From a virus: 16,937 nucleotides of DNA. Below are positions 797-16,937 of this stretch, one piece after another (positions within the stretch are counted from its first letter, which is position 1; each line of letters starts with the position of its first letter). The stretch lies in the IMG/VR virus record IMGVR_UViG_3300045988_100718; one strand, 5' to 3'. Below the pieces are notes generated by a model. The model had not been told where the DNA came from. It saw only the letters and a program-made list of their open reading frames with translations, and made no database searches. Both the position numbers and the translations under genes were made by a program.

Positions 797-800
797 ACAA

Positions 801-2119: not shown

Positions 2120-2148
2120 TGTCACCGCCCTTCCACCGAAGCGACTTC

Positions 2149-2662: not shown

Positions 2663-2669
2663 ACATTAA

Positions 2670-2698
2670 GTTATAGCTAAACGTATCCGTTTGGGCAA
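2670..2698 (-). promoter_or_regulatory. Candidate lytic promoter giving a leaderless cro-like mRNA
   Basis: On the minus strand: TTGCCC (2698-2693), a 17-nt spacer, TATAAC (2675-2670), 7 nt, then ATG at 2662. Confidence 0.5.
2679..2692. promoter_or_regulatory. Candidate operator palindrome AAACG-TATC-CGTTT
   Basis: A 5-4-5 inverted repeat sits inside the 17-nt spacer of the candidate lytic promoter. Related half-sites TAAACG occur at 2678-2683 and 2730-2735. ATCCGTTT recurs at 2622-2629 and 2685-2692, each copy followed by GG within 1 nt. Confidence 0.35.
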
Positions 2699-2720
2699 GC
2701 TGGATAGAAATACCGGCGTG

Positions 2721-2749
2721 TTGCCAAGTTAAACGAAAGTGCTTAGAAT
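2721..2749 (+). promoter_or_regulatory. Candidate repressor promoter giving a leaderless mRNA
   Basis: TTGCCA (2721-2726), a 17-nt spacer, TAGAAT (2744-2749), 6 nt, then ATG at 2756. Confidence 0.5.
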
Positions 2750-2755
2750 GAGGCT

Positions 2756-3199: not shown

Positions 3200-4050
3200 T
3201 GCGTTTTGGGCATGGTGGGCGTATGTCCAAGAAGATAAATGCGCCGCCGGTGTGGCGCGAAGAAATAACCCAGTATCTCGATGTTCTGAAGGCGGGCGGT
3301 CAGTCCAAGGGCACTCTAACGACGCGGCGGTGCCAACTGTCGCAGATGGCACGCGATCTTCAAGGCGTGCCCGCTGATGTGAGCGACGACGCGCTTGTGT
3401 CGTGGTTCGCCCGGCATGAGTGGAAACCGGAAACGCGCAAGAGCTATCGCAATGCCGTTACCGGCTTCTTTTCGTGGCTGCATACCACCGGACGCGCGGC
3501 AGCTAATCCAGCCGAAGCGCTGCCAAGCGTCCGACGTCCGCACGCGCACCCGCGCCCTTGTCCGGATAGCGTGATTCTAGCGGCGCTAGGGCGTGCGAAC
3601 GCGGCGGAACGCACCATGATTAGGTTGGCGGCCGAAGCGGGCCTAAGAAGGGCCGAAATAGCGGCCGTACACAGTCGTGATGTGATGCGCGATCTTGTCG
3701 GCCGGTCGCTGATAGTGCGCGGCAAAGGCGACAAGCAGCGGATAGTGCCTATTTCTGACGAACTAGCCGACACGATCACCGCCGCCGATGGCTACGTGTT
3801 TCCCGGCCGATGGTCGGGACACGCCGAAGCGTCCTATATCGGCAAGCACCTTAGCCGCCTTCTTGGCGACGGTTGGACGCCTCATAGTCTGCGCCACCGG
3901 TACGCGACGGCTACGTACCGGGCCACCAACGATCTGTTCCTAGTGTCCAAGCTGCTAGGCCATGACAGTGTAGAGACGACGCAACGCTATGTTGCGATGC
4001 CCGAAGACAGATTGCGGGCGGCGCTTGACGACGTGGCGCTTGTGATATGA
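3199..4050 (+). CDS. int: Small tyrosine recombinase / phage integrase, XerC/D-like, with no obvious arm-binding domain
   Basis: Catalytic-type motifs: GLRRAEIAAV (Arg), VRGKGDKQRIVPI (Lys), HSLRHRYAT (His-x-x-Arg), LLGHDSVETTQRY (His, Tyr). ATG 3199 overlaps the upstream stop as TGATG. Alternative starts are TTG 3196 and ATG 3223. Confidence 0.9.
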   Translation: MRFGHGGRMSKKINAPPVWREEITQYLDVLKAGGQSKGTLTTRRCQLSQMARDLQGVPADVSDDALVSWFARHEWKPETRKSYRNAVTGFFSWLHTTGRAAANPAEALPSVRRPHAHPRPCPDSVILAALGRANAAERTMIRLAAEAGLRRAEIAAVHSRDVMRDLVGRSLIVRGKGDKQRIVPISDELADTITAADGYVFPGRWSGHAEASYIGKHLSRLLGDGWTPHSLRHRYATATYRATNDLFLVSKLLGHDSVETTQRYVAMPEDRLRAALDDVALVI

Positions 4051-4053
4051 CAA

Positions 4054-4084
4054 GACGGCCCCCACGATCTCTTGCGGGGCCGTC
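4054..4084. terminator. Hairpin between the convergent int and holin genes
   Basis: GACGGCCCC (4054-4062) pairs with GGGGCCGTC (4076-4084) around a 13-nt loop. There is no strong U-tract on either side. Confidence 0.45.
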
Positions 4085-4091
4085 CGGCTCG

Positions 4092-4349
4092 CTAGTTGGC
4101 GTGCTTCGCGCGCGATTTCGGGGTAATGGGGTTGTCCTTCCACCACGCCCACATGGCCGCGCCGACGTTCCACAACAGGGCGACTAGCTGATTGATTGTG
4201 TCGTCCGCGACGGGGATTGTGTCAACGCCGAACATGACAAGTGCGGCGTTGGTCAGGCCGAGCAAGAGCACGACGAAACGCGCGATGGTCGCGGCGCTGA
4301 TACCGGGCGTGCGCGGGTCGCCGCCTTCCACCTGTTCCTCGTTATCCAT
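4092..4349 (-). CDS. Holin (85 aa, two hydrophobic helices)
   Basis: The two helices are IARFVVLLLGLTNAALVMFGV and LVALLWNVGAAMWAWWKDNPIT. The WWK(D/N)N motif is typical of a Gram-positive phage holin family. The gene lies directly downstream of the endolysin. Confidence 0.75.
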   Translation of the reverse strand: MDNEEQVEGGDPRTPGISAATIARFVVLLLGLTNAALVMFGVDTIPVADDTINQLVALLWNVGAAMWAWWKDNPITPKSRAKHAN

Positions 4350-4351
4350 GT

Positions 4352-5251
4352 TTAGCCTTCCTTCTCGGTCTTGCTGGTCGCGGTCACGTTGATTTCGAGC
4401 GCGTCCAGTTTTGCTTTCACGGCGGTTTCAACGGTTTTGGCGACATCGGCGGGGTTGCTGCCGAGCGCCTTGGAGAGCGCTTCGATCGCCGCCGCCTGAG
4501 CGGTGATTGTCGCGGTCATCTCACGCACGCGCTTGTCGATGTAGCACACGCGCGTGTAGATGTCGCCTCTGCTGCCGTCCTTGGTGCCGCCATCGTCCGT
4601 GCGGCTCAGCAGCGCGTACAGTCGCGCGGTGTCCTTGTGCATCCAGCTCAGTCGCACCCAAGCGGGTTGATTGTCCTTGCCGGGGGTGCCCTCGGCACCG
4701 ATTCCGTAGTTCCAAACGTCTCCGGCGCTTGTCATGTTGTTACCTCCCAATATCTCGTTGGCTTTATTGATTACAAAGTTCACGTCAAGGCCGTTCACGG
4801 CCTTGTCTGGGCACCCGTAGTGGTCTGTGCCGGGTATCTCCCGGTGCAGCCACACGTTGCCGTTGCGCCCGTCGTGCCACAAGCGGCCCCAGCCTTGACG
4901 TCGCGCGATCTCGGCGCACAGGCGGGCCGAAGCGTCCATGCACGCGCGCGTGCAAGGCACGCCGGCCATGCCGCCTTCGTGCTCGATGCTCACTGTGCTG
5001 TTGTTGCTCTCATAGTTCGCGTCGCTCCAACTGCCGTCGCTCTCGCTCACGTACTGGTGTATCTCGCCGTGGCCGCCGATGCCGTAGTGGGCCGAAGCGC
5101 CTCCGGCGCGTTGGAAAACGCTGTCGGTGCCGTTCAGATAGCCGACCATGATGTGCAAGGTGATATGGCTTATGGCGTAGCCGTTGCGCCCGTCGTAGTG
5201 GTTCGGGCTGCCCACCCATTTGATGGCGCTCACACTCTTGTCTCCTTTCAT
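4352..5251 (-). CDS. Endolysin: N-acetylmuramoyl-L-alanine amidase (PGRP/Amidase_2-like) with a C-terminal domain of unknown type
   Basis: ISHITLHIMVG...ASAHYGIG..GEIHQYV...STVSIEHEG fits the Amidase_2 pattern. An alternative start, GTG 5233, is preceded by AAAGGAG at 6-nt spacing and may be the true start. Confidence 0.8.
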   Translation of the reverse strand: MKGDKSVSAIKWVGSPNHYDGRNGYAISHITLHIMVGYLNGTDSVFQRAGGASAHYGIGGHGEIHQYVSESDGSWSDANYESNNSTVSIEHEGGMAGVPCTRACMDASARLCAEIARRQGWGRLWHDGRNGNVWLHREIPGTDHYGCPDKAVNGLDVNFVINKANEILGGNNMTSAGDVWNYGIGAEGTPGKDNQPAWVRLSWMHKDTARLYALLSRTDDGGTKDGSRGDIYTRVCYIDKRVREMTATITAQAAAIEALSKALGSNPADVAKTVETAVKAKLDALEINVTATSKTEKEG

Positions 5252-5259
5252 TTTGTTGG

Positions 5260-5496
5260 TCAGTCGTGGTCGAACAGGTCGGCCGGCGGTTCTGGCGGCG
5301 GCGGGCCTAGGCCCTTGTAGATGTGGTCAACCAACGCGCGGTTCCATTGCCACAGACGTTGGTTGTCGGCTTGCATCTCTTGCGCCATCCTGTACGCCTC
5401 CAACCGGTTCTTGGCCGCGTTGAACAACTGGGACACGACGGCACCGCCGATGGTGCCGCCCATGCCAACCAGCGCGATAATCACGCCCTCGCTCAT
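5260..5496 (-). CDS. Small membrane protein (78 aa): N-terminal TM helix, coiled region and Pro-rich tail. Possible second holin, antiholin or lysis accessory protein
   Basis: MSEGVIIALVGMGGTIGGAVVSQLF... The ATG overlaps the upstream stop as ATGA (5493-5496). The 130-aa track ORF is an upstream over-extension. Confidence 0.55.
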   Translation of the reverse strand: MSEGVIIALVGMGGTIGGAVVSQLFNAAKNRLEAYRMAQEMQADNQRLWQWNRALVDHIYKGLGPPPPEPPADLFDHD

Positions 5497-6059
5497 ATGA
5501 TCGAGTTCTTTCTCGTGCCGATTACCTGAGTGATTGTCAAGACGTCTGTTCTGGTTCCCTGATTGCTGTTGCACACGTTCGCTTCGCCGGTAATCCATTT
5601 GTCGGCGGAAGGTGAATATGTGTTGATGGTTTTTCCGGTGATCTTGTAGCACCGGTTCTTCAAAAAGAAGGAAGAGGTTTCTTCGAAGTACGATGTGGTC
5701 AGGCTGATTGCCTTTCCGTTCGGGTTCACGACGTCCATGCTGCCGAAAACGTTGTCATTGCTTCGGAAACAAATCGTCAATCGCTCGAAGTTCGCCGCGC
5801 TTTCAGAGAGCGTGATGGCACCTGCGAAGGGTGTGTTGTCGTTGTCGTACAACACCACGGTGTTGCCCCTGATGGCGTCCAACTGTTTTTCGACGGCGGC
5901 CATGCGGGCGGTGAGCTTGTTTGGGTCGGTGCCGTCGTAGTCGAAGCCGGCCAATGCTTCGTCGATGCCTTCGGCCTGTTGCTTGATGATGTCAGGTAGC
6001 TCGCGCACTTGGTCGCTGTCACTGGGATAGGGAAGACGGTAACGCTTCGTTGTCTCCAT
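5493..6059 (-). CDS. Tail fibre / receptor-binding protein candidate (188 aa)
   Basis: The N-terminal YRLPYPSDSD..V..LPD.I resembles the conserved N-termini of actinophage minor tail and fibre proteins. It is the last tail gene. AAAGGA lies 6 nt upstream of the ATG. The C-terminal two-thirds has visibly lower GC. Confidence 0.55.
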   Translation of the reverse strand: METTKRYRLPYPSDSDQVRELPDIIKQQAEGIDEALAGFDYDGTDPNKLTARMAAVEKQLDAIRGNTVVLYDNDNTPFAGAITLSESAANFERLTICFRSNDNVFGSMDVVNPNGKAISLTTSYFEETSSFFLKNRCYKITGKTINTYSPSADKWITGEANVCNSNQGTRTDVLTITQVIGTRKNSII

Positions 6060-7569
6060 CGTTCGTCCTTTCTTTGCTCATTGCCATTGCCTTGCTTGCG
6101 GCCGCCGGTGGTGCCCCGGTCTTGGTGACATGCCGAAGCGCGCCCAGAATCCAGTCGGCCTCTTTGAACGTGGCCGTCGATGTGAGTTTCTTCATGTCGG
6201 CGCACGTCGGTTTGCCGGTTTTCAGGTTGCGTGCGGGCCAGACGCGCACGCGGTGCGTCCACCGGCTTTTCTTGCCGGCCACGTCGTAGGTGAGGGTGCC
6301 GCCGATCACGCACCACGCGCCGGTGGTGGCCGGCGCGCTGGCGTCGAACCGGCTGCCGGGGAACAGGTACACTTCGGGCCGGCAATACATGTGGCGCTGC
6401 TCCATCTTGTCGCCCCTGAACGTGAGTTCCGGCAAGCGAACACGGTTGTTGCTTTCAGCCAGAGCTGCCACGGCTCTTGACATGTCGATGCTTGCGGCGC
6501 TGCTGGCCGAATTGGTGGGGTATTCCGTCCAGTCGGCCTCGATGCTCAGACAGGTTTCGCCGTTGCGGGTCTGCGTGGCGATCTGGGCCACTCGGCTGCC
6601 ATCGTAGTTGAACTCATACATGGTGGCGGCCTGTTCCTGTTCGGCGGCGGTCGCGCCGGGATTCGTCAATCCTCGGTGCGCGTATTTCATTTCGACTTGG
6701 GTGTAATAGTCTGATGCGCTATCCAACGTGGGGTCGGCGTCGATGATGATACGTGACGCTGCCGGGGTTTGGTAGTCGTCGTTTATGGTGGTTGACCCGT
6801 CACCCAGCACGATGGTGGGGCCGGTAAGTATCACGTCGGTATTCCAGAAGGCACGTATATCGCGGAACTGTGGCACTTTTGCGGCGCTGGCGTCTTGATA
6901 GGACATGTAAAACATGCGGTCGACCTCGAAGCTGTATTTGCCGTCGATCCGTCTCGTTACCTTGCGTTCGCAGAAGTCCATGAAACTGTGCCGGTCGCTG
7001 GCCTTCGGCGGCGTCGAAAACGTGTTGTAGGTGATGTCGTAGGCGGGGATGCCGTCGAAGTTAAGCCATCGTCTCAGCGTGGCGTCCACGGTGCCCTGTA
7101 ACCACCATTGGAAGCCGCGCGCGGCCTGCGCGTCGGTGCCGTCGTTAGGCCCCTTGCGGCAGTCGGTGCGAAGGATGTAGATACGGTCTGAGGCGGTGAG
7201 CTTGATACGGTTTCGCCCGCCGTCGTGGTCGAGCATCTGCACGTCTGTCACGTATCCGTCGAACAGGGCGTAGCACAAGGGACTTTCGTTGTAGGTGCCC
7301 TGTAGCTCCCACGCCGGCCGGACGGTGAGCCGGTGGCCCATAAGACCGTTGGCGGACTTGGAATAACGGCCGCCCTGATCTATCAAGGTGATGTTCAGGA
7401 CGGCCGGGTTGGTTTCATCCCACGGCTTCTCCACGCCCCACTCGATTGTGAACGGTGACAAGGGCACAAGATCGTCGCTGCCGTCCTGTGCCTCGGGCAG
7501 TTGGCGGAGGTCAAGGAAGATGTGGCAGCCCTCCGGCAGTGGGTTGCTCCATTTGCTCACGCCCCTCAT
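6019..7569 (-). CDS. Minor tail protein (516 aa), distal-tail/tail-tip type by position
   Basis: It lies immediately downstream of the tape measure with an ATGA overlap (7566-7569). Size and position fit a Dit/Tal-like protein. I recognise no enzymatic motif. Confidence 0.6.
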   Translation of the reverse strand: MRGVSKWSNPLPEGCHIFLDLRQLPEAQDGSDDLVPLSPFTIEWGVEKPWDETNPAVLNITLIDQGGRYSKSANGLMGHRLTVRPAWELQGTYNESPLCYALFDGYVTDVQMLDHDGGRNRIKLTASDRIYILRTDCRKGPNDGTDAQAARGFQWWLQGTVDATLRRWLNFDGIPAYDITYNTFSTPPKASDRHSFMDFCERKVTRRIDGKYSFEVDRMFYMSYQDASAAKVPQFRDIRAFWNTDVILTGPTIVLGDGSTTINDDYQTPAASRIIIDADPTLDSASDYYTQVEMKYAHRGLTNPGATAAEQEQAATMYEFNYDGSRVAQIATQTRNGETCLSIEADWTEYPTNSASSAASIDMSRAVAALAESNNRVRLPELTFRGDKMEQRHMYCRPEVYLFPGSRFDASAPATTGAWCVIGGTLTYDVAGKKSRWTHRVRVWPARNLKTGKPTCADMKKLTSTATFKEADWILGALRHVTKTGAPPAAASKAMAMSKERTNDGDNEALPSSLSQ

Positions 7570-9125
7570 AACGTTAGCTCCCTTCCGCGCACCTTGGCCC
7601 AACGGTCAAGACTTGCCACGATCTCGCCGGCCACCTTGTCGTTGTCAAGGTTTCCGTGCGCGTCCACGCTTATGTTCACGGTCACGTTGGCCGTCCGTGC
7701 CGCTCCGGCCACGCCGGCCGGTGCCGTGGTGGCGAACAGGCTGGGGGCCGAAGCGCGGGCGCGCAACGGCGTTGCCGTGGCTGTGGCTGTGGGGTCGATG
7801 GTGCGCGAAGCCGAGTAGACGCTCATGGGCTGGGCCATATAGGACGCCGAAGCCGAAGCAACGGACTTCTTCGCGCCGAAGATGCCGGACACCCACCCGC
7901 TTACCTTGTTCCATGCGCCGCTAATCCAGTCGAACACGCCGCGCACCTTGTCGGCCAGCCACTCGAACTTGTTCGCTATCCAATTGATAGGGCCGGCGAA
8001 GGCGTTCTTGATGCCCTCGCCTATTCCACTGAAGAAACTGCCGATTGAAGACCATGCCGACTTGAGCCAAGAACACAGCGCGTCCCATTTCTCGCGTATC
8101 CAGTCGGCGGCAATGCCGGCGACTTTCTTCACGTTGTCCCAGTTCGTCACCAGCACGGCGATAACGGCCACGATGGCTAGAATCACGGCCACCACCGGCA
8201 GAAACGCCAAGTTAACGGCACCCTGTGCTGCGGCAACGATGGCGGCTACGACGCTGTACGCGGTCATGGCTGCGTTAAGCGTGACTATGACGGCGGCCAC
8301 GGCCGCGATCACGGCCACCAGCGGGCCAAGCCACGACGTGTTCGCCTGTATCCATGTGGCGAAGCCGGCGAGTTTCTCGGCCATCTGGGTGAGCAACGGC
8401 AACAGGGCTTCGCCCAACGCGGCCTTGGCGTTCTCGAAGGCGGCGTTCATGCGCTGTTGCTGGCCTTGCGCGGTGTCTGCCTCGCGCGCGAAGTTGCCCA
8501 CGGCCTTGCCGCTCTGGGCGGTGATGGCGGCAAGCGTGGCTTGCATTTTGGCGTTGCGGTCGCCCGACTTGTACAGGTCGCCCAATCCCATAGAAGCGGC
8601 CTGAGCCTGTAGTGTGGCGTCGTTCAGGCTGATGCCGTACTTCTCTATGGGGTCCATTTCGCCCTTGAGCGCCGAAGACAGCGCGTCCACGGCGTCGGCC
8701 GTGGTGCCGCCGAACATGCTGGACAGATCAGCGCCCAAGCCGATAAGTTCGTTTGTCTTGCTTGCCGACTGTTCCGCAGACATGCCGAAGTTCTGTAGCT
8801 GGCTGCCCACCAGCGTGGCGAACTCGTTGTATTCGTTCTGGCTTAGGCCCACGCTCTTGGCCGCGTTCTTGCTCCATGCCAGCATTTGCTTGCTGGAGTC
8901 ACCGAACACGGTTTCGACGCCGCCAACCGACTGTTGCAAGTCGCCGGCGGCCTTGGCACAGGTCGCGGCACCCGCGCCGATGGCCGCCAGCGCGGCACTT
9001 GCGGCCACGCTCGCCTTGCCCACTTTGTCCTTGAAGGACATGCTTGCGCGCTGGGCCTTGTCCATAGCGGCCACGGCGCTGGTGGCGTCACCGATAATGC
9101 TAATGGCGAGAATCGCGCTTTTCAT
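7566..9125 (-). CDS. Tape measure protein (519 aa)
   Basis: It follows the G/GT chaperone genes. It is Ala/Gly-rich and helical, with a long central hydrophobic block (WLGPLVAVIAAVAAVIVTL...ILAIVAVIAVLVTNW), as is typical of tape measure proteins. Confidence 0.85.
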   Translation of the reverse strand: MKSAILAISIIGDATSAVAAMDKAQRASMSFKDKVGKASVAASAALAAIGAGAATCAKAAGDLQQSVGGVETVFGDSSKQMLAWSKNAAKSVGLSQNEYNEFATLVGSQLQNFGMSAEQSASKTNELIGLGADLSSMFGGTTADAVDALSSALKGEMDPIEKYGISLNDATLQAQAASMGLGDLYKSGDRNAKMQATLAAITAQSGKAVGNFAREADTAQGQQQRMNAAFENAKAALGEALLPLLTQMAEKLAGFATWIQANTSWLGPLVAVIAAVAAVIVTLNAAMTAYSVVAAIVAAAQGAVNLAFLPVVAVILAIVAVIAVLVTNWDNVKKVAGIAADWIREKWDALCSWLKSAWSSIGSFFSGIGEGIKNAFAGPINWIANKFEWLADKVRGVFDWISGAWNKVSGWVSGIFGAKKSVASASASYMAQPMSVYSASRTIDPTATATATPLRARASAPSLFATTAPAGVAGAARTANVTVNISVDAHGNLDNDKVAGEIVASLDRWAKVRGRELTL

Positions 9126-9651
9126 CGTCTCGCCTCCTTTGCCTCTTGCTCGGCCTCTTCGGCGTCCTCGCGTTCCTTTTCCAACAGTTCCAAACAGGTG
9201 CCCCAGTCCTCCGGGCTAGGCTCGCTCTCGCGACGCCACGCCCACGGGGTGCCGCCGAAGCGGGCGGCAAGCACGCACGAATAGGCGTTCAGGCCGTCGG
9301 CGTCCCAGCGGGGAAAGGGCCGAAAGTCTCTTCCTCGCCGTCGCTCACGTTGGCGGCCACCGGGGTGTCGAACATGTCCACAGCGTTGTCGTTGTCGTTG
9401 GCTATGTCCTCGATGCTCACGACGGTTGCCAGCCACCGGTCGAATGGCAGATCAGTAAGTGAGGTCTGGCGGCAGCGCATATAGGCGCTATAGGCGTTGA
9501 ACTTGACGGCGGCCTCCATGAGGCTGCCCCAGCCGTGGGCCTTGCCGTAGGTTTCTGCGGCGGTGCGTTGGAACATGGTCACCATGATTTCGTCGGTGTG
9601 ACCGTCGGTGTAGCGAACGCGGGTGTTCGCCGGTATGGTGGTGTCGCTCAT
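9122..9651 (-). CDS. Tail assembly chaperone GT-like product made by a -1 programmed frameshift
   Basis: The zero frame reads ...GGC CCT TTC CCC.... The heptamer C CCT TTC gives ...TFGPF then PRWDADGLNAYSCVLAARF... in the -1 frame (track ORF 9122-9436). That frame ends in an ATGA overlap with the tape measure start. Confidence 0.7.
9289..9651 (-). CDS. Tail assembly chaperone (G-like, 120 aa)
   Basis: It lies between the tail tube region and the tape measure. AGGAG sits 9 nt upstream of the ATG. Its 3' end overlaps a -1 frame ORF. Confidence 0.75.
   Translation of the reverse strand: MSDTTIPANTRVRYTDGHTDEIMVTMFQRTAAETYGKAHGWGSLMEAAVKFNAYSAYMRCRQTSLTDLPFDRWLATVVSIEDIANDNDNAVDMFDTPVAANVSDGEEETFGPFPAGTPTA
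9313..9319 (-). promoter_or_regulatory. Slippery heptamer CCCTTTC (X XXY YYZ) for the G/GT frameshift
   Basis: Read directly from the sequence. The frame relation was checked: lowest codon coordinate is 1 mod 3 before the site and 2 mod 3 after it, which is -1 on the minus strand. Confidence 0.7.
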
Positions 9652-9655
9652 TTGC

Positions 9656-10063
9656 TTAATCTCCTGTGGTTATGCGGTTTATGATCTTTTCGACGGCCTG
9701 AGAGTAAAGGGCCGTCCATTCCGGTTCGGTGTCCTTCGCGGCCTTGTTGGCGAAATAGGTTGCCTTGATGTTGTGGCCGGGCCAGCCGTAGTTAATGACG
9801 CCGGCATATGGCACCTTGCCTTTGTTGCCGGCGCGCACCACGCCGGCTTTCTGGGTGGCTCCGGCGCGCACGGTGCGCGACAGTCTGCCGGATACGTGCG
9901 GGGCCGTTTTCTTGGCCTCGCCGGCGACTATTGAAGCGGCCTCGCGGTTCACGGCCTTGAGGTCTTTCAGATCGTCGCCGGCTTTCTTCAGGCTTCGCGC
10001 CAGCTGGCCCGCGCCCTTCAGTTGCAAGGAGCCGTTGCCGCCGGCCCCAATCGTCCCGGCCAA
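9656..10063 (-). CDS. HK97 gp10-family head-tail joining protein (135 aa)
   Basis: AKKTAPHVSGRLSRTVRAG...VPYAGVINYGWPGHNI fits the gp10-family pattern (aP..tG.Lr.si......Ya..vefG). The start is TTG 10063 or an internal TTG and is uncertain. Confidence 0.6.
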   Translation of the reverse strand: MAGTIGAGGNGSLQLKGAGQLARSLKKAGDDLKDLKAVNREAASIVAGEAKKTAPHVSGRLSRTVRAGATQKAGVVRAGNKGKVPYAGVINYGWPGHNIKATYFANKAAKDTEPEWTALYSQAVEKIINRITTGD

Positions 10064-10066
10064 ACG

Positions 10067-10486
10067 TCACATCCCGGACGGCGTGTAGGCGCTGGGCGTC
10101 ACGTCCGTTGCGGCAAAACTGAAATCGTTGGCGTTCTTGCTCTTCACGTCGCCGCCGATCTGGATGCTGGCAATCGTCACCTTGCCCTTCCACTGGACGG
10201 TGCCCGACTTGTTCGGAATGAACGTGAACGGCAGTTCATCGCCGCTGTGCTGGTTGCACCAGACCTGAAGGCCGTCCATGCTGAAGTCTTCCTTGACGCT
10301 GCCGGTCAGCGTCCAAGACTCGGTCTGGCTGCCGCCCTCGCTGTGCCCGTCAAGGAAGTTGTCCGGGTCTTCGGTGTCGGTGCTCGGCTCCAACGCGGTG
10401 TTGGTCACGTCCGCGCTAAAGTCCTGTTCGCTGCCGGTGTCTCCGATCTTGAGCGAGCCGGGGCCAAGTGTGCGTACCTTCGCCAT
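10067..10486 (-). CDS. Major tail (tube) protein candidate (139 aa)
   Basis: The call rests on small size, a strong RBS (GAAAGGA 7 nt upstream), position in the tail module, and a GPGSLKIGDTGSEQDFSADV N-terminus like small actinophage tube proteins. It is made mostly by elimination. Confidence 0.5.
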   Translation of the reverse strand: MAKVRTLGPGSLKIGDTGSEQDFSADVTNTALEPSTDTEDPDNFLDGHSEGGSQTESWTLTGSVKEDFSMDGLQVWCNQHSGDELPFTFIPNKSGTVQWKGKVTIASIQIGGDVKSKNANDFSFAATDVTPSAYTPSGM

Positions 10487-10502
10487 GATTGTTTCCTTTC
10501 GG

Positions 10503-10883
10503 TTAGTCTTCGGTTAGTTCCAAGGGGTTAAGGATCAGTTCGTAGGCCGCGAGGTTGCCCACGCCGGCCAGCGAATAGGTGACGGGCTTCGCGCTTCGCA
10601 TGTTCACCTTGCGCGCCCAGAGTCTTTCGACCACGGGTGTGATGATGTCCAACGCTTGCACCTGTGTGGCGGTGGTGCCGGCGATCACGTTCACAGTCCA
10701 GATGCGCTCTTGGAACTGGTAGCCCTCGAACGTGATCGTCGGCGGGTCGATCAGCATAACGGCCTTGCCGGGCAATGGCCGGGCCTCTTGAGCGTCGATG
10801 GTCACGGCGGCCACGAGGTCTCCGGCGGCGTCGGTGAGCAAGTCCATAAGGGCTTCGCGCTCCTCGCGCACGCTCACGGTCAT
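10503..10883 (-). CDS. Head-tail joining or tail terminator-like protein (126 aa)
   Basis: The start MTVSVREERE overlaps the upstream stop as ATGA (10880-10883). The 179-aa track ORF is an over-extension. The call is by position. Confidence 0.5.
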   Translation of the reverse strand: MTVSVREEREALMDLLTDAAGDLVAAVTIDAQEARPLPGKAVMLIDPPTITFEGYQFQERIWTVNVIAGTTATQVQALDIITPVVERLWARKVNMRSAKPVTYSLAGVGNLAAYELILNPLELTED

Positions 10884-11227
10884 GCGATCACCAGCCCGCC
10901 CGTGGGCACGCCGACCGCGTTCAGTTTCGGCCAGACCGATCTGAGCGGGTCGGTGCTGATGCGGTATGGTTCCACCGTGCCGTCGCCCACGTCCATCACG
11001 CCCAATCGGGCGTCGCGGGCGTTGTACAGGTCGGCGGCGCATGACGTGATGCAGTCGGCGCGCACGGTGTCCGCCACCGTGTGCCCGTCTATCGCGCTGT
11101 CCACGTAGCTGATGGCGCTGGTGATGGCGCGTTGCACTCGGTCGGCGTCGCCGGCCGGGACTCCGATTTCGTCACGCACCGACGCTTCGTATTTTTTCCA
11201 GTCCATCAAGGCTGTGACTCCTTTCAT
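10880..11227 (-). CDS. Head-tail connector/adaptor protein (gp6-like)
   Basis: It is the first gene after the head module. RVQRAITSAISYVDSAI is a connector-like pattern. The start may instead be TTG 11209 or ATG 11206, both downstream of an AAAGGAG. Confidence 0.55.
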   Translation of the reverse strand: MKGVTALMDWKKYEASVRDEIGVPAGDADRVQRAITSAISYVDSAIDGHTVADTVRADCITSCAADLYNARDARLGVMDVGDGTVEPYRISTDPLRSVWPKLNAVGVPTGGLVIA

Positions 11228-11263
11228 GATGGTTGCTATGGATGGTGCAGAGTGCGAGGGAGG

Positions 11264-12124
11264 TTAGTCGATTTTGTACAGGCGGGGAGTGACTGTCGCG
11301 TTGACTGGGCCGGTGGCAGCGGTCGTGAAGATGCGCGCGGCCCACGTCTCGGTGCTGGCGACTGTGAACGCTCCGGTCTGCTGGTTGCTGGCGTCGCCGG
11401 CCGGGTTGAGCATGGCGACGTTGATGCCCGTGCCGGTAATGTTGGGGACTAGGTAATAGTCGCCGGGGTGGAGGGTGATTGAGCTGGCCCACGCGGTCCA
11501 GCCGGTCGCCTTGCCGGTGGCGGTGTATGAGCCGTCCTCAGAGGCGGTGAGGGTCACGCCGTTTTTTGTCTCACCGTGGATGGCGGGCCACAGGTTCGCT
11601 AGCTCATAGCCCCCCCCCCCAAGGCTCGTGTTATCTGGTTTCATCCAATCGTGCGCGGTGTCGCCGGATTCCAACTGGACTCGGAGGTCGCCGTTCTTCT
11701 CGGTGGGTGTGGCCTCGGTGGCGAGGATTTCGAAGCGCAGGCTGACGGTGCCGGCTGGGACTGTCCCGGCATTACCCGTGTTAATCTGGGCACCCAGTTG
11801 ACCACCTTTGGCGTCAAGGCATTTGACGGAGACGGTCAGACCGTCGATACTGGTGGGCCTGCTCAATGTCACGGCACCATGTACCGGGCAGGGGAACGTC
11901 CATCGAATGCCCGCCCACTGGCTTGAGGCGGTGCCCTTGACGTGCAGCGAGCCGTCACTGTTAACGGTGGCGGTCAAACCGTTGCCCGACGCGGGGCCAT
12001 AAGACAACAGGTTACGGGAGAGCACTGTGACGGGCACGACGGTTTTTACCGCTGGATTGACGGTGCTGGATATCGTCACGTCGGTTTTTCCCGGTTGTTT
12101 CCCGGTGATGGTGATGGTGGTCAT
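11264..12124 (-). CDS. Ig-like (C-terminal half of a Big_2 domain) plus two tandem CBM-like/jelly-roll-like repeats. Candidate capsid decoration or adhesin protein
   Basis: TTITITGKQPGKTDVTISSTVNPAVKTVVPVTV fits the last strands of Big_2. Two internally similar blocks follow: NGLTATVNSDGSLHVKGTASSQWAGIRW...RVQLESGDTAHDWMKP and NGVTLTASEDGSYTATGKATGWTAWAS...TVTPRLYK. Confidence 0.6.
   Translation of the reverse strand: MTTITITGKQPGKTDVTISSTVNPAVKTVVPVTVLSRNLLSYGPASGNGLTATVNSDGSLHVKGTASSQWAGIRWTFPCPVHGAVTLSRPTSIDGLTVSVKCLDAKGGQLGAQINTGNAGTVPAGTVSLRFEILATEATPTEKNGDLRVQLESGDTAHDWMKPDNTSLGGGGYELANLWPAIHGETKNGVTLTASEDGSYTATGKATGWTAWASSITLHPGDYYLVPNITGTGINVAMLNPAGDASNQQTGAFTVASTETWAARIFTTAATGPVNATVTPRLYKID
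11610..11620 (-). repeat. G11 homopolymer (C11 on the plus strand) inside the Ig/CBM gene
   Basis: Counted directly. It encodes SLGGGGYE, between the two CBM-like repeats. Confidence 0.95.
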
Positions 12125-12279
12125 TGGATCACCTCGATGTCGATAAGGTCGGTGCCGGCAGTGGTGGCGGTCACGGTCTGTGGCGCTGTGTCTGGTGTGA
12201 TTGTGGTTTTGATTTTTGCGGTTCTGCCCGCGGTGACGGTTAGACTATCCGGTGTGGCGCTGAGTCCCGTGGGCGTCAT
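12121..12279 (-). CDS. 52-aa ORF encoding the N-terminal half of a Big_2 Ig-like domain, below the ORF-track cutoff
   Basis: Hand translation: MTPTGLSATPDSLTVTAGRTAKIKTTITPDTAPQTVTATTAGTDLIDIEVIQ. It has ATGA overlaps with the capsid stop (12276-12279) and with the next ORF start (12121-12124). Confidence 0.5.
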   Translation of the reverse strand: MTPTGLSATPDSLTVTAGRTAKIKTTITPDTAPQTVTATTAGTDLIDIEVIQ

Positions 12280-13853
12280 CCTTTTGGGAACTTGACGGGG
12301 ATCAGGCCCGTGGGCAGCGTCGCGGCTACGGCAAGATAGCCATAGACGCTGTAGTTTTCGGTGAGATTGGTGGGGTCGCCGTCGCTGAGCTGGGTCGGGC
12401 CGCCGCTTTCCCAGACCGTTACCGCTTCAGGGTCGATGAAGCATGCCGTGCCGGTGGGGGCGCTTGGGAGGAGCTGGACGGGGACGCGGAGGAATCGGCC
12501 GGCGATGCCGGTGAGGTCGAAGTCGCCGATGGTGTCCGAGCCGTCGCCGGACAGGTCGAAGAATCGACTGCCGGTGTCCTTGAGCTTGATGAGCGCGGTC
12601 ATGACGTCCTTGGATACGCCGAGGCGGGTGAGGGACGTGTTACGGTCGTCGGCGAGTTCGGCGGCGTCCATGATAAGGCCCGCCCACTGGTCGATGGTCA
12701 TGGCGTCAAGGGCGGCGGGCGCGTCGATCTTGTTGGCGTTGGAGGTCGCGTCGCGCTGCGCGGCGATGGTCGCGTACAAGTAGTCGCGCACGGCGGTTTC
12801 CGTCGCCTTCGCGTAGGCGTTGCGGAGGCCGCGAAGCATGGTGTCGAGCGCGGGCACCTGAGAGCGTTCCACGGTCTGCCGTGAGATGCTGCCATAGCCG
12901 CCATACGTGTTGATGCTGACGGACTTTGTGGCGAAGGTCAGCTTGCCGAACGGCAGCTTGGCGCCTTCGGCCGTTTGCTTGCCGACTGTGGTGGTGTCGG
13001 TGTCGAGCACGGTGTATTCCATCGTCATGCCCTTGTCAGGCAGCGCGGCGTGAGTCAGGATGCCCATGACCTTACGGCGCTGCTGGATGAGGCGGAGGTC
13101 GTCGGCAATCCAAGTTGTCGTGTTGCCGATGTTGCCGGTGGTGATGAGGTCGCGGCATTCGTGCATGAGCTGCACGGCCGCGTCGTCGCCACGGTTCAGG
13201 GCCTGAAGGTACGCGCCCGCTGTACGGTATTCACCGCCGATGACCTTGGGCGCGGTGTTCGCGCCGCCCTTGGCGATAGCGGCCTTGATGCTGCGTTGTT
13301 CGTCCTTGATGGCCTCAAGGGTTTCGGTAAGTTCCGCGTCCATACGGGTTTCCTCGCTTTCGTTGTCGTTTCCGGTTTTGGACATGTTTCCGTGGGGGTC
13401 GGCGCTGCGTTGGTCTGTGATCTTCGCGGCCTCATACGCGGGCCACGACACCACCGACGTTTCCAACAGGCGCACGCGCTTGCGGTGTGTTACACCGTCC
13501 TTGTCGGTCTCTGATTCCACTGGGATGAAACCGACGCTGAGGCTGTCCAGCGCGCCGTCACGCAACAGGGCCACGACGTCGCGGCCTAGCTGCGTGTCGC
13601 TGATGCGGGCCGTGATGTGCAAGCCGTCCGACTGACTGTCGGCGTCGGTGATGCGGCCGATAAGCTCGCCGTGCTGGTAGCAGAGCTTGGCCGTGTCCAC
13701 GCCGTCGAACACACACGAACTGTCAAACGTCTCGGCACCGTTCCACGTATCAATCACCTGACCGAACGGCACGGCCACGCCTTCCAGCGTGCGGCCGTCG
13801 CCGTCTTCGGCGGCGCGTAGGCATACGCCCTTCAATCCGATTTCATGCTTCAT
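12276..13853 (-). CDS. Prohead protease (HK97/S78-like) fused to a scaffold-like linker and an HK97-fold major capsid protein (525 aa)
   Basis: The N-terminus carries LCYQHGELIG (His) and DSLSVGFIP (Ser), the HK97-family protease signature. An acidic, coiled linker follows, then a capsid-sized C-terminal domain of about 330 aa. No separate protease or capsid gene exists. GGAAGGGGTG lies upstream of the ATG. Confidence 0.75.
   Translation of the reverse strand: MKHEIGLKGVCLRAAEDGDGRTLEGVAVPFGQVIDTWNGAETFDSSCVFDGVDTAKLCYQHGELIGRITDADSQSDGLHITARISDTQLGRDVVALLRDGALDSLSVGFIPVESETDKDGVTHRKRVRLLETSVVSWPAYEAAKITDQRSADPHGNMSKTGNDNESEETRMDAELTETLEAIKDEQRSIKAAIAKGGANTAPKVIGGEYRTAGAYLQALNRGDDAAVQLMHECRDLITTGNIGNTTTWIADDLRLIQQRRKVMGILTHAALPDKGMTMEYTVLDTDTTTVGKQTAEGAKLPFGKLTFATKSVSINTYGGYGSISRQTVERSQVPALDTMLRGLRNAYAKATETAVRDYLYATIAAQRDATSNANKIDAPAALDAMTIDQWAGLIMDAAELADDRNTSLTRLGVSKDVMTALIKLKDTGSRFFDLSGDGSDTIGDFDLTGIAGRFLRVPVQLLPSAPTGTACFIDPEAVTVWESGGPTQLSDGDPTNLTENYSVYGYLAVAATLPTGLIPVKFPKG
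12282..12288 (-). promoter_or_regulatory. Candidate -1 slippery heptamer CCCAAAA, two codons before the capsid stop
   Basis: The zero frame reads TTC CCA AAA GGA TGA. C CCA AAA fits X XXY YYZ. The -1 frame continues AGG ATG ACG... into the Big_2 ORF. Confidence 0.5.
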
Positions 13854-15033
13854 TGTTCACCCCTTCCGGTTGCGGTGCTGCGATCTTGGGAGGCAGCGCC
13901 TCGCGCGCCCTGATCTCGTTTACGTCCATCCATCCCGCGCCGAGCGCCGAAGCATAGGCGGCGTAACGGTCGGACATGTCAGCGCGGCGGCTGCTGTCCC
14001 AGTCGAACGCGGCGGTACGGCCGCGCGGCAACAAGCGGTTAAACAGTTCCTCGATTTCGCCCGTGTAGGCCGCTAACGTGTAGTCAGCAAATTCAATCCA
14101 CGATTGCTCGATATTGGAATAGGTCAGGTTCGAGCCGTCAACTGCGGCAAGCATGATTGACGCCGGGATGCCGAGAAGTCGCGCGATCTGAGTCGTGTCG
14201 AACTTCTGCGTTTCGAGAAACTGAAGGTCTGCCGGCTTCATATCCAAAGGGACGTACTTCAGTTTCGAGCCGAGCACCTTCACGTCGGCGGCTGTGCCGG
14301 TCGCCTTCCACGCCTCTTTGGCGTTCTTGGCGATCTCGGGCGTCACCTTCTCTTCCGTCTGCAAATAACCCTTGATGTTGGAAGAATCCGTGTAGAACTT
14401 GGCCTTGTAGTCGCGCGCCATCTGAGCGCCTTCAACTTCCTCGCGCGCCGCCGATAGGGGACCCAGTCCACGCAAGCGGCCGGGAACGTTCAGAAACTTG
14501 CAATGCACGATGTCGTTGGCGGTGTAGTCCTTGCCGAGATAGCTATAACGGAGCTTCGGCGCGGCGGGGTCGCTGCCGTCGTCGGACACGACGACAAGGG
14601 CGGGCGGCAGCACCTCGCAAGACACGATGTCACCGCCGAAGCGCACAAGGCGGACGAAAGCGTTGCCGTCAATGACCATCGATGCCACCATGTCGGCCAA
14701 GAAGTCCCGGCGCGATCTGTTCACGTCAGGTTGCAGCACGAGGGAACTCACGGTGTCCAGCTTGACGCCGCCGCGCATCTCATGAATGGGCAAACCGGTA
14801 ATGGCGGTCTGCAACACTTGGACGCCGCGAAACACGGTGGACAAACTCAGCGGGTCGCACACGCTTGCACGCGCGGGCGGCTTGATGCCGTCCGGCATGT
14901 CGTCGTCGGCACCGCGCGTCAGCACGCGGCCCGCGATCTTCATACGCTGCCAAAGGTTCATGCGGCCGATTATGCGCGCACGACGCTGGAACGGTCTACC
15001 GTCGTGCCGCCAATCACCGCCAAGTACCGCCAA
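13843..15033 (-). CDS. Portal protein (HK97-family-like)
   Basis: The call rests on size and position between terL and the protease-capsid gene. The start is uncertain: TTG 15033 from the track lies inside a tandem repeat, while ATG 14961 (MNLWQRMK) is the first ATG. Neither has a clear SD. Confidence 0.75.
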   Translation of the reverse strand: MAVLGGDWRHDGRPFQRRARIIGRMNLWQRMKIAGRVLTRGADDDMPDGIKPPARASVCDPLSLSTVFRGVQVLQTAITGLPIHEMRGGVKLDTVSSLVLQPDVNRSRRDFLADMVASMVIDGNAFVRLVRFGGDIVSCEVLPPALVVVSDDGSDPAAPKLRYSYLGKDYTANDIVHCKFLNVPGRLRGLGPLSAAREEVEGAQMARDYKAKFYTDSSNIKGYLQTEEKVTPEIAKNAKEAWKATGTAADVKVLGSKLKYVPLDMKPADLQFLETQKFDTTQIARLLGIPASIMLAAVDGSNLTYSNIEQSWIEFADYTLAAYTGEIEELFNRLLPRGRTAAFDWDSSRRADMSDRYAAYASALGAGWMDVNEIRAREALPPKIAAPQPEGVNNEA

Positions 15034-15050
15034 GTACCGCCAAGTACCGC
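15011..15050. repeat. 10-bp tandem repeat, three exact copies (caagtaccgc) plus one degenerate copy (caatcaccgc)
   Basis: Read directly at 15021-15050, with the degenerate unit at 15011-15020. It starts 2 nt after the terL stop. Confidence 0.9.
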
Positions 15051-15052
15051 CG

Positions 15053-16498
15053 TCAGAAGATCTGCAGCGGCCCGGCCTCTTCGGGCCTGTGCGCCGCTCC
15101 CCACGCGGCCAACATGCACGATTCCAGCGGCGACGTGAGGCCCGTGGAGCCGCGGCGACTCACGCGCCATGCGTCGCCCGCCCACTTGCGCGCCGAGTTG
15201 GCCGCGCTAGCGTCAAGGTCGGCGTCGGCCGCGTGCCATATCGCACCGTTGGTCAGGCCGCTCACGTAGCTTTGCCCGACGGTGAGGTAGTCGGCCGCTT
15301 CCATGTCCACGAACACAAGCGCGGGGTCGCCGTCGCTGTCGGTCATATGGCGCAAGCGGTCGGATAGGTCGGCGGCGGTTCCACGGTTGTCGATCACCAC
15401 CGGCGCGCCATAGATGGCGCACAGACGACGTAGCTCTTCGGGCGCGTAGCCGGTGCCGTCCAGTATCTTCAGCAGCTGCGTGGTGATGGTGCCGTCCGGG
15501 TTGCAGATTCCGGCGCTGATGCTGGTGTGGGTAGAATCTACGTCCACGGCTGCACCGAAAACCACCGGCCTATCGTTCAGGTCGGCGGGGCTTATGGGCG
15601 CGGTGACTGTCTGCGCCCACGTCGCTTCATCTATGGCGCGGTCGGTTATGCCTTCGTCGCGCCTGTTGCCGAAGGCGCGCGCCCAACCGGCCGGATTGCC
15701 CTTGAATTGCTCGTGGAAGTCCACTAGCTGCGATCTGTCCCACAAAAGCCCCGCCGCTGGATGATGGATCATGATGGCGTCGAGGTCTTCGGGGTCGGCG
15801 TCGGCCGGAAGGCCGAAGTCGAACCAACATGTGCGCCGGGATTGCTCGCCCGCGCGGCAAGCGTCAAGACGGCGGTTGAAGAACGTCGATTCGGCCGTGC
15901 CTTCGGTGCTGGTAATCCAAAGTTGCGGCTGCACGCCCGTGGCCTTAAGGCGCGTCGCCATCGTGGGCATGAAGCCGTCGAGGATGGTATTACCGGTTTC
16001 CTCACTGAGGCTAAACGCTTCGTCCAGAGTGATCTTGTCGCCCTGTACTCCGTGGCCCGCCACCTTCGTCACGCTCTTGGGCATGATAACGGAGCCGTTG
16101 GCGAACGGTTGGCGAAGGTCGCCCGCGCCCAAGTACGGCCGTGTGGTGATGGCCGACAAGGGCGATGCCTGTATGGTCTTCAGGTATTTTTTAAAGTGGT
16201 CGCCCGCGTCCTTGCCGGTCTGAGCCAAGTAGTAGATGAAGCGGTTAGGCCCCCACTGCGAATTACGGGTATCCACCGCGTCCACAAGCGTGGATTTTCC
16301 GCACTGACGCGGCGTGGAAAGAATCACCGTGTCATAGTAGTAGGTGCCGGTATCGGGGTCGATTTCGCCCGCCACGTCGGCAACCATTCTTTGCCACGGC
16401 AATAGCGGCGTGCCGAGCAACCGCGCGAACTTGGCGACTATGGGGCCGTCCGTCTTCCGGTCGGGGTTGCGCGGGGTGCCGCCGCGTACCGGCGTCAT
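15053..16498 (-). CDS. terL: Terminase large subunit
   Basis: The Walker A motif is STPRQCGKSTLV, with a nuclease-type C-terminal half. The start ATG 16498 overlaps the terS stop as ATGA. The track ORF to 16582 is an over-extension. Confidence 0.9.
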   Translation of the reverse strand: MTPVRGGTPRNPDRKTDGPIVAKFARLLGTPLLPWQRMVADVAGEIDPDTGTYYYDTVILSTPRQCGKSTLVDAVDTRNSQWGPNRFIYYLAQTGKDAGDHFKKYLKTIQASPLSAITTRPYLGAGDLRQPFANGSVIMPKSVTKVAGHGVQGDKITLDEAFSLSEETGNTILDGFMPTMATRLKATGVQPQLWITSTEGTAESTFFNRRLDACRAGEQSRRTCWFDFGLPADADPEDLDAIMIHHPAAGLLWDRSQLVDFHEQFKGNPAGWARAFGNRRDEGITDRAIDEATWAQTVTAPISPADLNDRPVVFGAAVDVDSTHTSISAGICNPDGTITTQLLKILDGTGYAPEELRRLCAIYGAPVVIDNRGTAADLSDRLRHMTDSDGDPALVFVDMEAADYLTVGQSYVSGLTNGAIWHAADADLDASAANSARKWAGDAWRVSRRGSTGLTSPLESCMLAAWGAAHRPEEAGPLQIF

Positions 16499-16800
16499 GC
16501 CTTCGCCTCTTGCAGCAATCCGGCAAGGGCGGGGTCGATTTCCTTTTGCGCCGGGAACTTGGTTTCTAGTTCCTGATACCACGCCAATAGCTGCGCCATG
16601 ACGCGCGACGTGTCGCGGCCCTTGGCGTTCAGGGCGTCGAAGTTGCGCGCGATATTGATCATGGTCTTGCAGATATACCGGGCGCTGGGGTTCAGGGTAC
16701 GGCCTTCCATGAAACTGTCGATAAGTTCCTTCGTGGCGCGTTCCTGTAGGCCATCGTTGGGGCCGTAGTAGTCCTCGAATCCTTCTAGCGTCATTTGCAT
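16495..16800 (-). CDS. Terminase small subunit candidate (101 aa)
   Basis: It lies immediately upstream of terL and is translationally coupled to it. GAGGTG sits 6 nt upstream of the ATG. It is small and helical. The call is by position only. Confidence 0.55.
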   Translation of the reverse strand: MQMTLEGFEDYYGPNDGLQERATKELIDSFMEGRTLNPSARYICKTMINIARNFDALNAKGRDTSRVMAQLLAWYQELETKFPAQKEIDPALAGLLQEAKA

Positions 16801-16852
16801 TCGTTCACCTCTTCTTGTTGCTTGTTTTCGTTGGTATTCCGCCGTTTTCTAG

Positions 16853-16937
16853 ATTTTTTTGTCCGGTTCGAGAGAGTAAAAAACTGGGCGCGGGGTCTTT
16901 TCCGTCGTCGGCTGTTTAAAAAACGGCGTCACCATTC
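16853..16937 (+). repeat. Right copy of the 85-bp direct terminal overlap
   Basis: Identical to 1-85. Confidence 0.95.

Follow-up and report, generated by a model that had tools for sequence, protein, structure and literature searches.

Whether an immunoglobulin (Ig)-like domain that is spread over two consecutive genes is the remnant of an accident or a functional arrangement is the question raised by a locus in IMG/VR record IMGVR_UViG_3300045988_100718, a stretch of viral DNA of 16,937 nucleotides (the window, positions 1-16937) that, judging from homologues, belongs to a Bifidobacterium longum prophage or phage. All the genes relevant to the question are on the minus strand. Behind the gene of a fused prohead protease and major capsid protein lies an open reading frame (ORF) of 52 residues, ORF52 (12279-12121), followed by one of 286 residues, ORF286 (12124-11264). 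A preliminary description of this DNA had proposed that the two encode a single Big_2 Ig-like domain, and had offered a frameshift mutation in a decaying gene, a 1-nucleotide assembly error or a second recoding event as the cause of the interruption. The model that we consider best, and to which we give slightly better than even chances, is that the split Big_2 Ig-like domain would work as a plug and a socket, docking a protein with domains like carbohydrate-binding modules (CBM) onto a frameshifted capsid protein.

The two reading frames meet at an ATGA (12121-12124, minus strand) that holds both the stop codon of ORF52 and the start codon of ORF286. ORF52 ends with GAC ATC GAG GTG ATC CAA TGA (protein …DLIDIEVIQ), and ORF286 begins with MTTITITGKQPGKTDV and is read in the −1 frame relative to ORF52, just as first described. 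Its frame is also open upstream of the ATG, for 40 codons (120 nucleotides), but that stretch encodes Arg/His-rich junk (…RHHCRHRPYRHRGDP) and not Ig sequence, so that of this earlier observation the open frame stands and its coding value does not. A sequence scan found no X_XXY_YYZ heptamer anywhere in the ORF52 frame, which extends to the whole ORF what had been noted for the vicinity of the junction, and the junction has no homopolymer. A Shine-Dalgarno-like GAGGTG (12130-12135, minus strand) is present inside the last codons of the N-terminal half of the domain, its GAGG core 7 nucleotides before the ORF286 ATG. The GAGG(T/G) at this distance is conserved, and all junctions of the capsid type, in which the first half of the domain follows a capsid gene, retain a purine-rich counterpart; in B. 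reuteri it is GGGGGA, although the encoded IEV has there become IGG. The −4 (ATGA) overlap recurs in 22 capsid-type loci, ORF286 being always in the −1 frame. In one capsid-type locus, L015, CTG replaces ATG at the junction (position 5001, CCACTGACC), so that ORF286 lacks a canonical start there; a sequencing error, non-AUG reinitiation or an inactive copy could account for it.

The domain can be followed over both products. The −1 frame extension of the capsid gene, an arginine plus the 52 residues of ORF52 (12121-12281, minus strand), contains the N-half of the fold (strands A, A′, B, C and C′/D) and scores 70.8 bits with the hidden Markov model (HMM) of that half, which gives 47-92 bits at the other loci scanned. 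The C-half (strands E, F and G; 61.3 bits) is formed by residues 1-34 of ORF286 (12023-12124, minus strand). When ORF52 and ORF286 were joined head to tail and modelled by AlphaFold2 with an alignment (A5) that includes unsplit relatives, the two pieces came out as one domain, with a mean predicted local distance difference test (pLDDT) score of 93.1, 89-97 over residues 1-90, and a predicted template modelling (TM) score of 0.79. The model has eight strands, at residues 5-9, 13-16, 20-28, 36-40 and 46-52 and then at 55-60, 64-72 and 79-87, which roughly bears out the earlier assignment of strands A-D to ORF52 and E-G to ORF286, and the gene boundary (52/53) falls inside a tight two-residue turn. 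In Foldseek comparisons the first ~88 residues are superposable on the C-terminal Ig-like domain of the lambda tail-tube protein gpV (7t4f_A: 89 columns, root-mean-square deviation (rmsd) 1.3 Å, 26% identity; 2l04: 88 columns, rmsd 2.3 Å, TM score 0.77), and the fused model also aligns with the Big_2-CBM56 module 7quz. As a fold it is a 7-8-strand beta-sandwich superposable on solved Big_2 domains.

Relatives exist in which the domain is not divided. An exhaustive HMMER search over 1.84 billion representatives retrieved P0240 (query positions 7-129, E = 1.7e-15), P0246 (query 3-224, matched to its own residues 171-402, E = 9.6e-14) and P0332 (query 11-289), and these unsplit proteins carry the same central domain after the Ig domain. 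In alignment A5 they run uninterrupted across the junction, as in P0240 (…DIVSVKSV-EGGY-SLTAVKDGTATLTV…), and split P0235 is 54% identical to unsplit P0240. Structure prediction, fold comparison and unsplit relatives are three lines that agree, and they confirm that ORF52 and ORF286 encode one Big_2-type Ig domain.

It is well supported by sequence comparison that the N-half would join the capsid protein by −1 FRAMESHIFTING at a conserved heptamer. The gene of the protease-capsid fusion, the carrier of the N-half (525 residues, 12276-13853, minus strand), ends with TTC CCA AAA GGA TGA, and the slippery site assumed in the preliminary description is real: C_CCA_AAA (12282-12288, minus strand) lies in phase, two codons before the capsid stop codon TGA (12278-12276). 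A slip of −1 leads into ORF52, with the reading …F P K R M T P T G L S…, and the predicted capsid variant ends with …VKFPK-RMTPTGLS…DIEVIQ, the shift peptide being …VKFPKR(M)TPTGLSATPDSLTVTAGR. If reading went on uninterrupted into ORF286, the virtual product would be capsid-Ig-CBM-CBM, as had been anticipated. The sequence CCCAAAAG-NN-TGA is invariant in 25 distinct sequences, which comprise two capsid families and major tail protein genes; the heptamer itself is invariant across four gene contexts, always with a zero-frame stop at most two codons on, and closes not only the 525-residue protease-capsid fusion but also an unrelated capsid protein of 315 residues (L025, L039, L040 and L059). 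Codon preference does not account for the heptamer, since CCA and AAA are rare in the element (9% of Pro and 27% of Lys codons, respectively). The ATG of ORF52 (12279) is CTG or GTG in relatives, and because the start codon varies, the conserved route to ORF52 is not initiation at a start of its own. Two marks of −1 programmed frameshifting, an X_XXY_YYZ heptamer near the 3′ end of a gene and an open, conserved −1 ORF behind it, are found here.

The same CCCAAAAG-NN-TGA cassette also ends the major tail protein gene of two loci, adding an N-half there (L008, 9005-9160; L063, 4948-5097), and in L039 (4513-4981) the sequence ATC CCA AAA GGC TGA leads to a 147-residue extension that contains an extra beta domain and then an N-half. 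The window's own major tail protein gene (10486-10067) has no such frameshift extension. Locus L089 (2287-4678) contains apparent serial −1 frameshifts that would yield nested products from three ORFs: its tail-tube protein (295 residues, ending with …APKA) overlaps a 272-residue Big_2 array that ends with GCC CCT TTA GCG TAG, and the array continues in the −1 frame, via C_CCT_TTA, into the Ig-CBM protein P0240.

The split is kept throughout the homologues. The fused query produced 1175 protein matches, and among the 120 matches listed all cover only the ORF286 portion, with a coverage of 83-85% for the full-length ones and less for a few that are truncated; these proteins are mostly of 282-305 residues, have a common start residue and are never extended upstream. 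The common start is kept despite ~40% divergence over the first 34 residues (MGISVTGVKPGNTTVTINS…, MGALSITGIKPGSTNLKLTAG…, MTKLNITGVKPGSTSLELTAG…), and the distant representatives P0203, P0219, P0226, P0235 and P0243 (29-42% identity) start at the ORF286 position too. A profile search with the N-half found 73 proteins of 30-100 residues, and all 24 sequences inspected end right after it. The HMMs of both halves were then scanned over 89 loci, namely the window, B. reuteri (the single locus given by a scan of GTDB genomes), 80 IMG/VR contigs and 7 contigs from protein look-up. No terminal N-half runs on for more than six codons before a stop, and no C-half is found anywhere but at a gene start; the architectures are NC (37 loci), nNCC (15), NCC (14), nNC (11), NNC (5) and NCN (2), n denoting an internal N-half with another N-half right after it. 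The 45 distinct junction variants have their split at one and the same loop. What the preliminary description had read as one interrupted domain is, in the homologues, a pair of ORFs consistently kept separate with an unchanged junction, which is the sequence part of the outcome that this description had itself named as its refutation, and the features of a pseudogene or artefact are missing: the break is found in all the homologues examined, with ratios of non-synonymous to synonymous substitution (dN/dS) of 0.35-0.47. Judged by this comparison, the conserved split is a design of Bifidobacterium phages and not damage.

Besides the window, B. reuteri and 22 IMG/VR loci have the capsid-type context, with the N-half after a capsid gene and an ATGA junction. 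Elsewhere among Bifidobacterium prophages the homologue of ORF286 closes the tail module, immediately ahead of the genes of a GH25 endolysin and a holin, and the N-half is the C-terminus of a protein of 184-237 residues that also contains a complete Big_2 domain (ending with …PDGASQEYTADITDKTIATIKQ in L001, …TIATINSKE in L004 and …TLATVTKEA in L006). The distances from stop to start in these tail-type loci are +2, +5, +11, +30, +32, −8 and +155/158 nucleotides, the +30 spacer holding three in-frame TAA codons (TAA … TAA TAA), and the C-half genes have their own ATG with an AAGGAGG-type Shine-Dalgarno sequence before it. Spacers with stops can be bridged neither by frameshifting nor by readthrough, and therefore the halves are separate polypeptides in the tail-type loci; the homology of the modules, and the loop at which all of them are split, make separate halves the parsimonious reading for the window as well. 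We regard it as very probable that the split and the separate translation of the halves are genuine.

Although encoded apart, the halves appear to behave as one functional unit. Pairwise identities were compared among 45 non-identical triplets of N-half, C-half and central domain by a Mantel-type test with 2000 permutations; single-linkage clustering of the modules at 60% identity, which it replaced, was too coarse for cognate pairs. Identity between N-halves correlates with that between the adjacent C-halves (Pearson 0.88; 0 of 2000 permutations as high), whereas the C-half does not follow the central domain with which it is contiguous in its own protein (r = 0.02; 720 of 2000 permutations as high). 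The C-half thus tracks the N-half and not the central domain, from which it follows that recombination respects the domain boundary, just before the SRNLL motif, and not the gene boundary. Over 21 capsid-type sequences the N-half has a pooled Nei-Gojobori dN/dS of 0.47 and the C-half one of 0.35, against 0.81 in the central domain, and selection on the N-half and the C-half alike is purifying. The capsid and tail N-halves of L039 have in common …LPEGADQTVTATVADKSIA…, and one protein with the C-half is present in the region examined.

We propose the following docking model. A fraction of the ribosomes would slip by −1 at the C_CCA_AAA of the capsid gene end, giving rise to a capsid variant with 53 extra residues, whose five C-terminal Ig strands would constitute the socket. 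ORF286 would be made as a separate protein from its own Shine-Dalgarno sequence and ATG, as sequence comparison supports; its first 34 residues, the missing strands E-G, would be the plug, followed by two CBM-like beta-sandwiches. Overlapping stop and start codons allow reinitiation, and operon-encoded partners can assemble co-translationally. Because of this known behaviour, we infer that the ATGA overlap could couple ORF286 synthesis to the frameshifted ribosomes, so that after reinitiation the plug would emerge beside the just-released socket. The plug would then insert into the socket, completing both sheets of the sandwich non-covalently, and the CBM-like protein would be tethered to those capsid subunits that frameshifting produces. 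The arrangement is that expected for fold complementation, with incomplete folds whose missing strands are at the terminus of the partner: N-halves stand at C-termini without exception, and C-halves at N-termini. Among related Bifidobacterium phages the socket ends major tail protein extensions or distal tail proteins, with one or two plug proteins encoded next to it, and the socket and plug module looks like a general docking device. As to the reassembly of the two halves, we lean, if modestly, towards it taking place.

Several points weigh against this model. The AlphaFold2 model is of an artificial fusion and indicates compatibility of the halves, not association. When ORF286 was modelled alone, residues 1-15 and 31-43 fell below a pLDDT of 50 while the central domain reached 72-91, but this run had a shallower alignment (12 sequences versus 26) and a lower overall confidence (71 versus 93), and the N-terminal disorder is a weak control, only suggestive. 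Neither ORF52 nor ORF286 nor their fusion matches Pfam Big_2 (PF02368) at E ≤ 1, let alone at its gathering threshold; the sole Pfam match is a sub-threshold T2SS-T3SS_pil_N spanning the junction, and a profile search of PDB sequences gave a weak S-layer Big_2-like match to the C-half and nothing across the junction. Pfam being silent on the window, the Big_2 label rests on the precomputed PF02368 matches, some of them weak or faint, of homologous N-half proteins and neighbouring carrier proteins, on a PHROG match to 'structural protein with Ig domain' and on the fold. There is no convincing conserved stimulatory RNA structure downstream of the heptamer, where a single-sequence fold has z = −1.4 and an alignment fold gives four weak pairs at −3.6 kcal/mol. 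The co-variation of the halves could partly reflect their physical linkage on the DNA. Finally, a strict 1:1 count of sockets and plugs per locus does not hold, loci of 2:1 and 1:2 being found, which implies that some sockets would be empty or contested. Part of this would fit a split that became fixed while the halves ceased to interact, the frameshifted capsid carrying a functionless half-domain and ORF286 acting alone, docking otherwise or staying soluble with a leftover N-terminal beta-meander. Modelled alone, ORF286 still shows strands at residues 13-19 and 27-33, with low confidence; socket and plug numbers are unmatched in many loci; and in lineages with poly-G tracts the OFF state merely truncates the protein after the N-half. 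We nevertheless find such a vestige unlikely, since purifying selection is tighter on both halves than on the central domain, the halves co-vary as a unit with recombination breakpoints after the C-half and not at the gene boundary, all homologues, even those at ~30% identity, still begin with the plug, and four different carrier proteins have kept the socket as their C-terminal end together with a frameshift site dedicated to it.

The explanations proposed at the outset fare worse. Ribosomes in the capsid-type loci might shift by −1 a second time, or re-pair at CAA_UGA/AUGA, and so produce a covalent capsid-Ig-CBM-CBM protein; the constant −1 frame and ATGA overlap in the 22 capsid-type loci would suit this, as would the CTG of the L015 junction and the chained −1 frameshifts of relatives such as L089, whose 272-residue Big_2 protein passes into Ig-CBM via C_CCT_TTA. 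But X_XXY_YYZ is absent from the ORF52 frame, the tRNA-Gln on CAA would, judging from the sequence, re-pair poorly on CCA, the Shine-Dalgarno sequence and ATG of ORF286 are conserved, the −1 frame upstream of the junction is junk, and the homologous tail-type junctions, with spacers of 2-158 nucleotides and stops, are beyond the reach of any frameshift; a second recoding is therefore improbable, above all as a general mechanism. Decay by a frameshift mutation, or an error of 1 nucleotide in the assembly of the window, could appeal to the homopolymer indels that are common elsewhere in the gene family, in its poly-G tract, and to the existence of unsplit relatives. Yet hundreds of independent assemblies, which come from several sources and include another species, have an identical junction, the split recurs in homologues, in the 80 IMG/VR loci and in B. 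reuteri as 45 non-identical versions, the window junction is devoid of homopolymers, and the flanking frames are conserved with dN/dS < 0.5. We give hardly any credence to either.

The protein that the docking model would place on the capsid has two further domains after the plug. The central beta-sandwich (11621-12022, minus strand), which starts from the SRNLLSYGPA motif, is modelled with pLDDT > 90 and belongs to PHROG 35081, and the C-terminal one (11264-11609, minus strand), a variable and cassette-like beta-sandwich according to AlphaFold2 and PHROG, belongs to PHROG 35108. Foldseek finds CBM-like matches for the two (Big_2-CBM56 7quz and CBM22 4xup), and both also resemble lectin-type sandwiches and models of phage tail fibres and receptor-binding proteins. 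The linker between them, LGGGGY, is encoded by a tract of 11 G (11610-11620, minus strand), and it is at this tract that PHROGs divides ORF286 into two families. The tract has 7-13 G in related loci and is conserved despite differing flanks; about one-third of the related loci are out of frame just past it, and the near-identical L009, L010 and L012 have 9, 10 and 10 G, the latter two being out of frame. An in-gene tract of at least 8 nucleotides whose length differences switch the frame has the properties of a contingency homopolymer, and the ORF286 tract looks like either a slippage ON/OFF switch for the C-terminal domain or a hotspot of homopolymer sequencing errors. For the C-terminal domain at least four unrelated cassettes were found (YELANLWPAIHGE, YELANLYPRVTGL, SELTNLWPEHQAQ and YELANLVPSFTSI), and this, together with the central dN/dS of ~0.8, points to mosaic exchange, of the sort typical of receptor-binding proteins, at SRNLL and at the poly-G/YELANL junction. 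In the more distant relative L091 (1864-2958) a GDSL lipase/esterase domain stands between the plug and the same NLLxYGP central domain as in ORF286, and therefore the docking module may carry enzymes besides binding domains. A 274-residue ORF of no assigned family (3984-4808) comes after the CBM protein in the same locus. A ~1.4-kb insertion, apparently an insertion element, breaks a plug-type gene of L052 (~3090-4520) just past its start codon.

Poly-G tracts also occur at the place of the split itself. In L091, the sister locus of L089, whose unsplit P0240 is itself a −1 extension downstream of a tail-tube gene, 9 G lie exactly in the D-E loop (1770-1790): one frame ends with …VENIGGGI and the other reads FSLTAVTAGTATVTISSKIEPTVTT-MIQ… into the GDSL lipase domain, so that 8 G would restore a single continuous Ig-lipase ORF. 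In L093 (2985-2995) …VRGGYDQ with 8 G is followed by ATGA and MSQTFEVTGVGRG…. In tail-type loci the C-half proteins of a second class have runs of 7-13 G immediately behind the start codon, e.g. ATGAACGAATCTTTTAGGGGGGGGGG… (L004, 720-760; L005, 3524; L011, L019, L043, L056, L062, L078 and others), and several of these additional runs, start-proximal or in the D-E loop, are in the OFF frame. Replication slippage at tracts of G11-G12 is an experimentally documented ON/OFF switch of Bifidobacterium pilus genes (PMC9187656). We propose that slippage at a poly-G encoding the Gly of the D-E loop would have broken the domain, and that the gain of a Shine-Dalgarno sequence and an ATG would have fixed the split, which probably began at such a loop.

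A wider reading, which we put forward tentatively, is that Bifidobacterium phages possess a general, combinatorial 'half-Ig' docking system that gives their virions a phase-variable, modular surface. In it, sockets (strands A-D) would be placed on capsid, tail tube and distal tail through −1 frameshifting or protein C-termini; the effectors bearing the matching plug, CBM-like adhesins and in relatives a GDSL esterase, would be interchangeable; and poly-G tracts, whether at or close to the split loop or between the domains of effectors, would switch which plugs are made or fused.

Incomplete Ig-like folds that are completed by a partner have precedents. In chaperone-usher pili an Ig-like pilin that misses strand G is completed by the N-terminal extension of the next subunit. 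The proposed docking would likewise complete an Ig-like sandwich with N-terminal strands of another chain in a tight non-covalent link, but three strands (E-G) would be donated instead of one, chaperone and usher are absent, assembly would be that of a phage in the cytoplasm, the proteins are unrelated in sequence and the interaction is deduced here. With SpyTag/SpyCatcher, engineered from CnaB2, it has in common a beta-sandwich in two fragments that reassemble as a docking tag; unlike that pair, the split is natural, lies mid-domain at the D-E loop and lacks isopeptide-forming residues. Ig-like extensions of phage proteins (Big_2, I-set or FN3) produced by frameshifting were reported by Fraser et al., as summarised in Atkins et al. 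2016 (PMC5009743), and in T3 gene 10 and in the major head and major tail proteins of Lactobacillus phage A2 such extensions are added by −1 frameshifting (PMC5009743). The present system is alike in having X_XXY_YYZ at the 3′ end of capsid and major tail genes, an Ig-like −1 ORF, only a fraction of the subunits decorated and a match to the lambda gpV Ig-like fold. It differs in that the frameshift adds only 5 of the 8 strands of an Ig domain (~60%), the others coming from a separate gene product that bears CBM-like effector domains. We found no description of a split Ig domain or of fold complementation in phage virion proteins in the open-access literature.

The poly-G tracts, for their part, resemble the switches of Bifidobacterium sortase-dependent pili, where intragenic runs of 8-13 G in surface-adhesion genes split or join ORFs (PMC9187656). 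Here, by contrast, the tracts are in phage genes, and the Ig junction of the window has no G-tract, only the downstream one (11610-11620) being left; this junction appears to be a fixed derivative. Bifidobacterium prophages are also known to exchange receptor-binding modules by Rin/Min/Gin shufflons, which swap the C-termini of receptor-binding proteins (Mavrich et al. 2018, PMC6109161). Both systems place variable receptor-binding C-terminal modules on a constant part, but an invertase and inverted cassettes are absent beside the present locus, and the exchange would take place at the level of proteins. A Rin-type shufflon was considered and discarded: the 11-bp rix repeat TTCCCTAACCC gave one match with 1 mismatch, at chance level (19 of 200 shuffles reach it), and the locus has neither inverted repeats nor an adjacent tyrosine invertase. 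On these prophages Mavrich et al. 2018 mention neither frameshifting nor Ig domains (PMC6109161).

The surroundings of the locus are those of a phage structural module. Genes for the terminase (16582-15053) and the portal (15033-13843) precede that of the protease-capsid fusion (Pfam Peptidase_S78, 4e-16, and Phage_capsid_4, 2e-9; PHROG major head protein, 2e-77), and ORF286 is followed by head-tail connectors and by the major tail protein gene (10486-10067), which adjoins the next gene; tape measure, minor tail proteins and an amidase endolysin lie beyond, all on the minus strand, while a helix-turn-helix (HTH) protein and an integrase are encoded on the plus strand. The gene content thus comprises terminase, portal, capsid, tail, amidase, integrase, HTH and HNH, and no replication genes were recognised among the genes of the whole window. 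Many independent contigs with a near-identical ORF286 are, like the window, of 16.6-16.9 kb, and the element therefore may be a complete, unusually small phage-like genome. BLASTN and TBLASTN searches of the locus against 50,697 GenBank phages gave no matches. In L006 (6563-7962) and L007 (3670-5039) an HTH/rve transposase pair is located directly downstream of the holin-like gene that follows the endolysin.

The split module is widespread in gut Bifidobacterium phages, and junctions of this kind should not be 'repaired' as frameshift errors in annotation. If the halves reassemble, they would be a natural split-Ig 'tag and catcher' by which adhesin or carbohydrate-binding modules are hung on capsids and tails with no covalent fusion, and the frequency of frameshifting would be tied to the stoichiometry of decoration. 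This would explain many orphan 50-residue 'Big_2' ORFs and N-terminally odd tail proteins in annotations of gut phages, and would put a docking pair, small and genetically encoded, at the disposal of phage display and engineering, both in Bifidobacterium and elsewhere. It would also mean that a gene fission internal to a domain can become fixed, by the proposed route of poly-G slippage followed by the gain of a start site.

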